DNA of 42,580 nucleotides from positions 1 to 42,580 of the forward strand of contig CAZZIF010000001.1 of NCBI GenBank assembly GCA_964654025.1, written 5' to 3'. Origin of the DNA: an uncultured bacterium. Its GTDB lineage: Bacteria; Eisenbacteria; RBG-16-71-46; CAIMUX01; WJJG01. Positions 24,001-27,000 of this stretch are shown here, in pieces (the stretch's first letter is position 1; the number at the start of each line of letters is the position of its first letter). Made by a program: the position numbers.

Positions 24001-27000
24001 TGATGTCCCCCTCGAACCAGCCGTTCTCCCCGATCAGCCGCCAGATCTGCTTGGCTCCGGGCAGGGTGCCTTTCGCCCCCTCGGAAATCTTGATCCGCGG
24101 CACCCACCCCCCCTCCGACTCCATGGCCGCCAGCTTGTACACCCCGCTCAGCGCCGGCTCATTGTACGAGGTGACCAGGCGCGTACCCACACCCCAGACG
24201 TCGATCCGCGCCCCCTGGACCCGGAGGTCGTGGATGATCCATTCGTCCAGGTCGCCCGACGCCACGATCTGGGTCTCCTGCAAGCCGGCCTCATCGAGCA
24301 TCGCCCGGGCCTTGATGGAGAGGTAGGCCAGATCGCCGGAGTCGAGTCGTATCCCGTGCAGCTTCCGCCCTTTGCGTTTGAGCTCTTGGCCCACCCGGAT
24401 GGCGTTGGGCAGGCCCCGGCGGAGGGTGTCGTAGGTGTCGACCAGCAGGATGCACGCCTGAGGATACTGCTCGGCATAGGTCCGGAAGGCGGTCAACTCG
24501 TCATCGAAGGCCATGATCCAGCTGTGGGCCTGCGTGCCGCGGACCGGAAGGCCCAGACGCTGCCCCGCCTCGACGTTCGAGGTCGACTCCACGCCGCCCA
24601 CATACGCCGCTCGCGTGGCCGACAGCGCGCCGTCGACCCCGTGGGCACGCCGCATCCCGAACTCGATCACGTTGTCCTCGCCGGCTTCCTGACAGATCCG
24701 GGCCGCCTTGGTGGCGATCAAGGTCTGGAAGTTGATCAGGTTCAGCAGCGCGCTCTCGAAGAACTGCGCCTCGATCAAGGGAGCGCGCACGCGAAGGATC
24801 GGCTCCATCGGAAAGACGAGCGCTCCCTCGGGCACCGCGTCGAGATCCCCCGTGAACCGGAACCGCGCCAGGCGATCGAGAAAGTCCTCGTCGAAGAGTT
24901 CGAGCGACCGCAGGTAGGCGATTTCCTCGGGCCCGAAGCGAACCTCTTGCATGAAGCGAACGGCATCGCCGAGCCCGGCGGCCACCAGGTAGCCGCCCTG
25001 TTCGGGAATCGAGCGTACGAAGAGATCGAAGAGCACCCGGCGCTCGGCGAGGCCAGCCCGCAGGTACCCGTTCATCATCGTGAGTTCGTAGAGGTCGGTG
25101 CGCAAGCCCGAGGCGGGCGGATACCAGCCGCCGGTGCCCATCGCTCCGCGGCCGGTCCGCGCAACACCCGAGTCCGTCGGATCGCTCATAGGGTCTCTCG
25201 CTTTCAGAACAGATCGCCCGATGTGACCTCGATCACCCCGGCCGCGCGCATGTCCTCCAGTGCCGTCTCCACCGATCCATCCAGATCGATGCCGCACGTG
25301 GCGTCGCGGACCAGGCCCACCTCGAATCCGAGCCGACGAGCATCGAGCGCCGTGTAGAGCACGCAGAAGTCGGTCGCCAGGCCGCTCAAGAAGACGCGTC
25401 TGGCGCCCAGTTCGCGGATCGCCGGGCCCAGGCCGGTCGGCGTCGTGCGGTCATTTTCGTAGAACCCCGAGTAGGAATCCAGACCGGGATTCATGCCCTT
25501 GCGCACGATGAGCCGGGCCGGGACGGTGTGGAGCGAGGGGTGGAAGTCGGCCCCCGGGGTCCCCTGGACGCAGTGGTCCGGCCAGAGCGTCTGGGACCCG
25601 TACGCGACCTCGATCTGCGCGAACGGCAGGGCCTGCGGATGGCTCGAGGCGAACGACAGGTGCCCGGCGGGATGCCAGTCCTGGGTGAGGACGACCGTCT
25701 CGAACCGCTTCATCAAGGCGTTCACCGCCGGAATGATCATCTCTCCGCCGGGTACGGCCAGCGCGCCGCCGGTGCAGAAGTCGTTCTGGATGTCCACGAC
25801 CAGCAAGGCGTCGGTTCTCCGGTCGATGGTGATCACATTCATCTTCGGCTTCCTCGGAGAAAGGTCCGCAATTATTGCATCATTGTGTCATTGCATCATC
25901 AATACGTCACCGCCTCCAAACAGCCTCCTCTTGGAGGCGCTGCTCGGGCACCACACTACCCCCGCGATGGGATCCGTGTCCACGAAGCTGCGGGCCGGCT
26001 CCCCCACCTCGGCCAGCTGGGCGCGAGCCTCGAGGCGGCCGTGCTGTCGGTTGACCAACCCGAGAGGAGATGGGACAGTCCTGGGCAGCCATCGGCGGCA
26101 GCGACCGAATCAAGACGAGGGGGTCTCAGGTTGACCAACGAGAAGCTCATCGATCCGGAGAAGGTCCACGTCCGCGTGAACGTCTGGCTCGAGAACGAGA
26201 AGGGAGAGATCGTCTATGGCGCGGGTCGCCAGCAGATCCTCGAGGCCGTAGCGCAGGACGGCACGCTCTCCGCGGCCGCCTCGGACCTGGGCATGTCCTA
26301 CCGCGGCCTATGGGGGCGGATCCGGATCTCGGAGAGGCGCTTGGGCTTCCAGCTACTCGAGTCCCATGCCGGCCGCGGGCCGAACTCGGGCTCCTCGCTC
26401 ACCGCTCACGGCAAAGCCCTCATGGAGATCTATGGCCGGCTCCGCGAGGCCCTCCATCGCTGCGCCGACGACACCTACGCCGCCACCCTGAAGCGAAACA
26501 CGACCAACCTGGAGTAGGTCCCGGTGTGGTCCCGGTGCGGTCCCGGTCCGGTCCCGGCTTGGTCCCAGCGTGGTCCCAGCGTGGTCCCAGCGTGGTCCCA
26601 GCGTGGTCCCGGCGTTTCCCAAAAACTCCCATCGAATCTGCGTCCGGCCCGCTCCCCTCCGTCTTCGAAACCCTGATTGCGAATTGTGCCAATCCTGGCA
26701 TCTTACTATCCTGCAATAAGTTACAGAACAAACGAACTTGACTTCGCCATTCCTGAAGTGGACGATGTGTTCATCTTCGATCTTGATGACACACGACAGC
26801 GGCATTCGGGGAGGGGGCAACTTGCGATTGGCGAGTCCGCGGGAGCGCCTGGCGGTGCTCGACGGCCGTCCGGGCGTTGCGCCGGAAGTGCTTGCTCTGG
26901 AAGAACGCTTGATGGATTGGCGGGAAACGGTTCGCGCCTCGCTTCGGGATTATCCGCTTGATCCACCCGCCGACGATCTGCTCGACGCAGCCATTCGGGA

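Follow-up and report, generated by a model that had tools for sequence, protein, structure and literature searches.

The array of GGTCCC repeats between the ModE-like regulator gene and the fdh operon is very probably a young, species-specific VNTR (minisatellite), which would have been made by slippage from an 11-mer adjoining the regulator stop codon and which is tolerated and most likely neutral. In the window, which here denotes the whole 42,580-nt stretch of DNA analyzed, positions 26517–26615 comprise nine head-to-tail 11-bp units without indels, as seen both by reading the sequence and in the TRF call (period 11, 9.0 copies, 90% matches, 0% indels, score 121). Each of the nine units consists of an invariant 6-bp GGTCCC core and five variable bases, which are, in unit order, GGTGT, GGTGC, GGTCC, GGCTT, AGCGT (four times), and GGCGT. 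Units 5–8 are identical, and the perfect period-11 run within the array extends over 50 bp (26561–26610). The units are contiguous, with no unique spacers between them. The phased pattern GGTCCC-N5-GGTCCC was matched nine times in the window, with eight exact matches, all inside the array, and an unrelated one-mismatch match outside it; 100 dinucleotide shuffles yielded a mean of 0.67 matches, and none of them reached nine. The nine phased units described in the earlier note are thus confirmed. In the assembly as a whole, a pattern of three phased GGTCCC cores gave seven matches, all inside the array. A search for further GGTCCCRGYGT arrays, which the earlier note had proposed, found none elsewhere in the genome, and the unit is unique to this locus.

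The last base (G) of the regulator stop codon TAG (26515–26517) is the first base of the array, and the array end lies 69 bp upstream of an operator-like palindrome and 122 bp upstream of the conserved −35 box TTGACT (26738–26743), in agreement with the previously given start on the stop codon and end about 120 bp before the fdhE promoter. The array is non-coding, as had been claimed: a codon-usage gene caller placed no gene across it, and a period of 11 bp is not divisible by 3. Long, spurious-looking ORFs cross it on both strands. The reported lack of dyad symmetry also holds, since neither strand of the array folds beyond its shuffles (z = +0.83 as RNA and +0.73 as DNA). No family was matched in an Rfam gathering scan of the whole window, and a consensus promoter and terminator scan of 25800–27000 returned nothing, with no terminator between the regulator gene and fdhE. 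The proposal that all nine cores face one side of the helix is valid only in part. With the 10.5 bp per turn of B-DNA, each 11-bp unit adds a drift of about 17 degrees, or about 137 degrees from the first to the ninth core; because of this drift, the GGTCCC cores would share one helix face only if the local helical repeat were about 11.0.

The copy number of the array differs between strains. Twenty public sequencing runs share words with the locus, and four of them, from three studies, were compared over positions 26100–27000 as k=31 contigs rather than raw reads. In a sludge run (X4, study P2), a 1,223-nt contig spans the locus with a 44-bp skip and flanks of about 98% identity, and the reconstructed allele has five units, with the tails GGTGT, GGTGC, GGCGT, AGCGT, and GGCGT. 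In a sediment run (X8, study P3), a contig spans the array with a 55-bp skip and flanks of 95–97.5% identity, and the reconstructed allele has four units, with the tails GGTGT, GGCGT, AGCGT, and GGCGT. The skipped portions of both alleles include non-identical units, and no perfect stretch longer than the assembler word is left in the resulting arrays. Because non-identical units are missing as well, a k-mer collapse of identical units is unlikely to have produced the five-unit and four-unit alleles. The contigs of two runs of the probable source study (X1 and X2) support the edge units and break inside the 50-bp perfect stretch, and the four identical central units are counted from the original assembly. 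None of the three strain alleles (nine, five, and four units) has fewer than four units, and the first unit is the same in all of them, so that some minimal array might be under retention. With three or more alleles in one species-level population, the locus qualifies as a true VNTR, and the recent expansion and variable copy number foreseen in the earlier note are corroborated at the contig level in populations from the three studies.

The array is not conserved between species. Orthologues of the regulator were found in 12 of the 14 family genomes searched, including all three other genomes of the genus (G001, G002, and G003). When the DNA past the regulator stop codon was read in the proper orientation, the array was absent from the loci of these three genomes and from those of all the family members searched. 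The earlier note had taken absence from close relatives to speak against a regulatory role, and G001 and G002 indeed have an intact regulator–fdhE layout without the array. In G003, the closest relative, the regulator is 91% identical at the amino acid level, and the nucleotide sequences align at about 90% identity as far as the regulator stop codon and once more beginning at AACCCTGATTGCGAATTGTGCC; in the stretch separating these two points, the window has 161 bp (the array and 62 bp), whereas G003 has 46 unalignable bp. In G003, the fdh operon is either decayed or misassembled, with fdhE, the 5′ portion of fdnG, and two other pieces missing, so that G003 alone is a poor control and the argument from absence also draws on G001, G002, and the family members. 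Of the ten bases past the G003 stop codon, seven agree with the unit consensus (P = 0.006 for this fixed position), which would fit the duplication of an ancestral local 11-mer. Between the window and G003, neighboring arrays likewise show unit-sized indels. The distance from the stop codon to the palindrome ranges from 22 to 226 bp in the relatives, and the stop-to-operator segment is therefore unconstrained in both length and sequence. Unrelated tandem repeats occupy the same spot in two other genera, as a 22-bp unit in four copies (G006) and a 45-bp unit in two copies (G007).

The elements that are conserved at this locus lie downstream of the array. The regulator gene (26164–26517, + strand) encodes a small winged-helix protein of 117 aa from a GTG start at 26164, with an alternative TTG start at 26131. 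The protein matches Pfam HTH_1 (1.8e-09), is HTH_1/ModE-N-like without Mop/TOBE domains, and scores 51.7 bits against the NCBIfam model ModE_repress, under its cut-off of 98.5. Beyond the array and a non-conserved spacer (26616–26684), delimited by the pairwise alignment with G003 and by the variable stop-to-site distance in the relatives, lies the imperfect palindrome TGTGCCAATCCTGGCATCTTAC (26685–26706; core RTGYC-N6-GRCAT), whose sequence has nothing in common with GGTCCC. It was seen at the same promoter-relative position in nine of the ten regulator–fdhE loci compared, or in eight of the ten under a strict pattern, from which G003 is one base off. The consensus of the palindrome is matched at no other intergenic position of the genome, so that there is no second intergenic site to define a regulon. 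The palindrome is the natural candidate operator of the adjacent regulator. The conserved sigma-70-type fdhE promoter (26738–26766, + strand) follows, with the −35 box TTGACT (26738–26743), a 17-bp spacer, and the −10 box GACGAT (26761–26766). It was read directly from the relatives' loci, which keep TTGACA-N17-GAnnAT about 30 bp past the palindrome, and falls under the threshold of the consensus promoter scanner; most relatives with fdhE downstream keep both the palindrome and a TTGACA/GAnnAT promoter. The gene fdhE (26822–27709, + strand; TTG start at 26822 or 26828; gene call, Pfam FdhE_central/FdhE_C, and NCBIfam FdhE) is the first of the fdhE-fdnG(Sec)-fdnH operon, the members of which were recognized by profile matches, and fdnG is split by an in-frame TGA at the selenocysteine position of formate dehydrogenases. 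The array sits in a chromosomal housekeeping context (pncB, PDH E1, and fdh).

At the genome level, the array is one product of a lineage-wide tendency, in which the genus and some members of the family fill their non-coding DNA with tandem repeats. TRF detected 2,194 non-overlapping arrays in the whole 4.97-Mb assembly. Genes were predicted with a rough codon-usage caller trained on the long high-GC3 ORFs of the genome (3,823 genes, 84% coding), on which the following non-coding fractions depend. About 1,265 arrays are non-coding, corresponding to 1.6 per kb of non-coding DNA, or eight times the coding density, and these cover 12% of the non-coding bases. Among them, 646 have a period that is not a multiple of 3, including 50 with period 11 and 40 with period 10, and the commonest of such periods are 13–14, not 10–11. 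Selection for helical phase was accordingly rejected, as period 11 forms no peak among the non-coding arrays. The fdh-adjacent array ranks 445th by score and 42nd by copy number. About one third of the intergenic gaps of at least 30 bp (766 of 2,280) hold an array. Convergent gaps are expected to carry no promoters; 40% of them hold an array, and arrays are at least as frequent there as in tandem gaps. Arrays touch a stop codon in 183 cases and a start codon in 58, and the former number indicates that a beginning at the stop codon is a common local pattern and not specific to this locus.

In 20-kb samples, the array density was 5.0 per 10 kb in this genome, 3.0 and 2.5 in two genus mates, 4.5 and 2.0 in two members of the family, and 0–1.0 in 13 other members of the family, order, or class with similar GC. 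Loss of mismatch repair as the cause of this load was rejected, given that MutS_V (two hits) and MutL (one hit) are present in the genome. The cause of the raised slippage or tandem duplication in this genus, despite the presence of MutS and MutL, may reward study. According to the literature, some prokaryotes have an extreme excess of 6–11-bp tandem repeats in their intergenic DNA, and methyl-directed repair is inefficient on loops of more than 3 bp (PMC4060949). The assembly consists of 693 contigs, and many arrays lie at contig ends; the repeat load fragments short-read assemblies of the lineage.

The origin of the array may be pictured as follows. An 11-mer adjoining the regulator stop codon would first have been duplicated, and replication slippage or unequal recombination between the units would then have expanded and contracted the array, slippage being the mechanism inferred for its growth. 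The block of four identical central units may represent the latest expansion, while the edge units would have diverged through point substitutions; diverged edges and a homogeneous center are the picture usually left by recent internal expansion, and the unit sequences are consistent with it. The array would sit in an unconstrained spacer between the regulator stop codon and the block formed by the palindrome and the −35/−10 promoter, where changes in copy number would be tolerated. Its copy number is most likely neutral, to judge from the lack of conservation in the relatives' sequences.

These features are those of bacterial VNTR (minisatellite) loci and of the intergenic 6–11-bp tandem repeats that abound in some prokaryote genomes (PMC4060949). 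VNTR loci are used in the MLVA typing of Mycobacterium, Xanthomonas, and Burkholderia. The array resembles them in its head-to-tail units without spacers, a unit unique to a single locus, conserved flanks, whole-unit differences between strains, degenerate edges with a homogeneous core, and non-conservation between species. It is unlike them in the extreme load of its host, which has arrays in about one third of its intergenic gaps and is probably far denser in them than the classic MLVA organisms. The earlier note had assigned the array to no known repeat family. It was right that the array is neither CRISPR nor REP-like, and wrong in kind, as the array is an ordinary VNTR of an already known type in a repeat-rich lineage. 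REP/BIME and MITE repeats are dispersed and have dyad symmetry, whereas the array occupies a single locus and lacks such symmetry. CRISPR repeats measure 23–50 bp and alternate with unique spacers of similar size, whereas the array has contiguous 11-bp units without spacers; the CRISPR and iteron readings were both rejected on the unit size, the missing spacers, and the chromosomal housekeeping context. A family of phased GGTCCC arrays shared between genomes was also considered. Outside this genome, public genome and metagenome contigs hold at least 239 loci with four phased GGTCCC cores, which are spread over many phyla and have unrelated 5-nt spacers. Such a family was rejected on the unrelated spacers and taxa, with an occurrence at chance level among the many public 11-bp arrays.

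A cooperative binding site, on which a regulator would oligomerize along the nine direct repeats and activate or silence the fdh promoter, is one of the readings put forward in the earlier note. The adjacent ModE-like protein or a response regulator of the OmpR/PhoB type would be the candidate binders. The invariant 6-bp core, the 5-bp variable part, and the exact 11-bp period formally resemble the direct-repeat units of OmpR/PhoB-type operators such as pho boxes, which are 11-nt repeats with a conserved core of 6–7 nt and a variable rest. Moreover, the array lies on the same strand as fdhE, upstream of its promoter, and at least four units are kept in all strain alleles. However, pho units overlap or adjoin the −35 box, whereas the array ends 122 bp short of it and 69 bp short of the palindrome. 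Pho units also recur across a regulon and are kept in orthologous promoters, whereas the GGTCCC array motif occurs at this single locus of the genome and is absent from every orthologous promoter, where a different, palindromic site is conserved instead. With respect to ModE operators, the locus is similar in having a ModE-N-like winged-helix gene beside a molybdo/tungsto-enzyme operon. However, ModE-type dimers bind palindromes, as is expected of an HTH_1/ModE-type domain, and the conserved palindrome lies outside the array. In addition, a separate binder would have to exist for each of the hundreds of other arrays in the genome, whose units and periods are unrelated. Cooperative binding of a regulator to the array is thus very unlikely. 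Intrinsically bent DNA, in which a bendable GGTCCC element would be phased with the helical repeat, had also been put forward, and is even more improbable. The 11-bp period is close to one helical turn, and GGCC-type elements can bend DNA. However, period 11 is not enriched among the non-coding arrays, and two dinucleotide wedge models predict net bends of only 18 and 5 degrees, i.e., a nearly straight array. Under the two models, a bend equal to or greater than that of the array is predicted for 57% and 94% of random genomic 99-mers and for 88% and 97% of unit-shuffled arrays, so that the array does not rise above the background as intrinsically curved DNA would. Phased A-tract controls run alongside were strongly curved; the curvature results are approximate and serve as supporting evidence only.

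Another reading is that the array acts as a copy-number tuning knob or contingency element, in which slippage would alter the expression of fdh or of the regulator through the length or composition of a read-through transcript, a shift of the upstream sequence relative to the operator, or non-B DNA such as a G-quadruplex or i-motif. Effects of repeat number on promoters are known in other bacteria, and the phase-variable contingency loci of Neisseria and Haemophilus, with tandem-repeat variation in M. tuberculosis as a further comparison, likewise combine a slippage-prone repeat near a promoter with copy numbers that vary between strains. The copy number truly differs between strains here; with no terminator predicted between the regulator gene and fdhE, the array may sit in a bicistronic RNA, and the nine GGG tracts on the minus strand, spaced by 11 nt, could in principle form hypothetical long-loop G-quadruplexes. 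However, contingency loci have units of 1–7 bp rather than 11 bp, and the array lies outside the conserved operator–promoter block, neither between the −35 and −10 boxes nor in the operator–promoter interval nor in any reading frame. All the conserved promoter elements lie downstream of the array, so that gaining or losing units offers no obvious handle on expression and shifts only the coding end of the regulator relative to the promoter block. The predicted RNA structure of the array does not exceed that of shuffles, arrays are at least as frequent in convergent gaps, expected to lack promoters, as in tandem gaps, which argues for a position-blind mutational process, and in the relatives the operon is regulated with no array present. 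The suggested control of fdh expression by copy number is therefore unsupported, and this reading is very unlikely. The broader form of it, in which this array and the intergenic arrays across the genus would be a selected tuning device altering the expression of fdhE-fdnGH or of the regulator between strains, appears slightly less likely still; if true, it would imply heritable population variation in formate metabolism, acting via the read-through transcript, non-B DNA, or some binder. That the array is an artefact of assembly or part of a coding sequence is extremely unlikely. The contigs of the probable source runs do break inside the perfect 50-bp stretch, and the crossing ORFs are long. 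However, the array appears with identical edge units in independent assemblies from three studies, no gene is called over it on codon usage, and any reading frame would be shifted by an 11-bp period combined with unit-sized indels.

The array matters little for fdh biology and can be left out when fdh regulation is modelled, for which the focus should be on the palindrome at 26685–26706 and the TTGACT/GACGAT promoter. The array can serve as a strain marker, with four, five, and nine units in the three studies.

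Comparison of the regulator–fdhE loci delineated a conserved cis-regulatory block upstream of fdhE (window 26685–26766), in which an imperfect palindrome, TGTGCCAATCCTGGCATCTTAC, is followed after ~30 bp by TTGACT-N17-GACGAT. The palindrome was seen in nine of the 10 loci compared, and its consensus has a single intergenic match in its own genome, namely the site upstream of fdhE. The block probably serves the small ModE-N-like regulator as its operator and promoter.

Within the operon, an in-frame TGA (window 28370–28372) joins the ORFs at 27806–28372 and 28421–30817 into a single FdnG. 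Together they match positions 2–194 and 212–1009 of the NCBIfam formate-DH-alpha model, and this coverage fits a reading of the TGA as a putative selenocysteine codon. In the closest relative, G003, the corresponding locus (L267, G003:C15:30000–49999) is syntenic with window 26779–31217 at 90–95% identity, but three window segments are absent, 26779–28552, 29512–29852, and 30794–31217, the first of which comprises fdhE together with the 5′ portion of fdnG, in which the putative selenocysteine codon lies. The regulator and the fdh promoter are retained despite these missing segments, and the G003 operon is either decayed or misassembled.

Tandem repeats directly following the regulator stop codon, in the stop-to-operator spacer, were also detected in two other genera, as four copies of a 22-bp unit in G006 (L018) and two copies of a 45-bp unit in G007 (L013). 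These are unrelated repeats, which suggests that repeats arose independently in this unconstrained spacer. The region between the regulator and its upstream neighbor, an isochorismatase-family gene on the minus strand (window 25204–25842), is another hypervariable spacer; this intergenic region (window 26003–26093) is ~370 bp longer in G003.

The tandem-repeat load of the window's own genome, which encodes both MutS and MutL, is extreme. A total of 2,194 arrays were detected genome-wide by the tandem-repeat finder TRF, accounting for ~12% of non-coding DNA and present in one third of intergenic gaps. A high load is common to genus mates and some family members, while the wider order lacks it. 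Many of the arrays are located at the ends of contigs (e.g., C67:1–222, C47:1–139, and C282:8–162), which probably explains the fragmentation of the assembly into 693 contigs.
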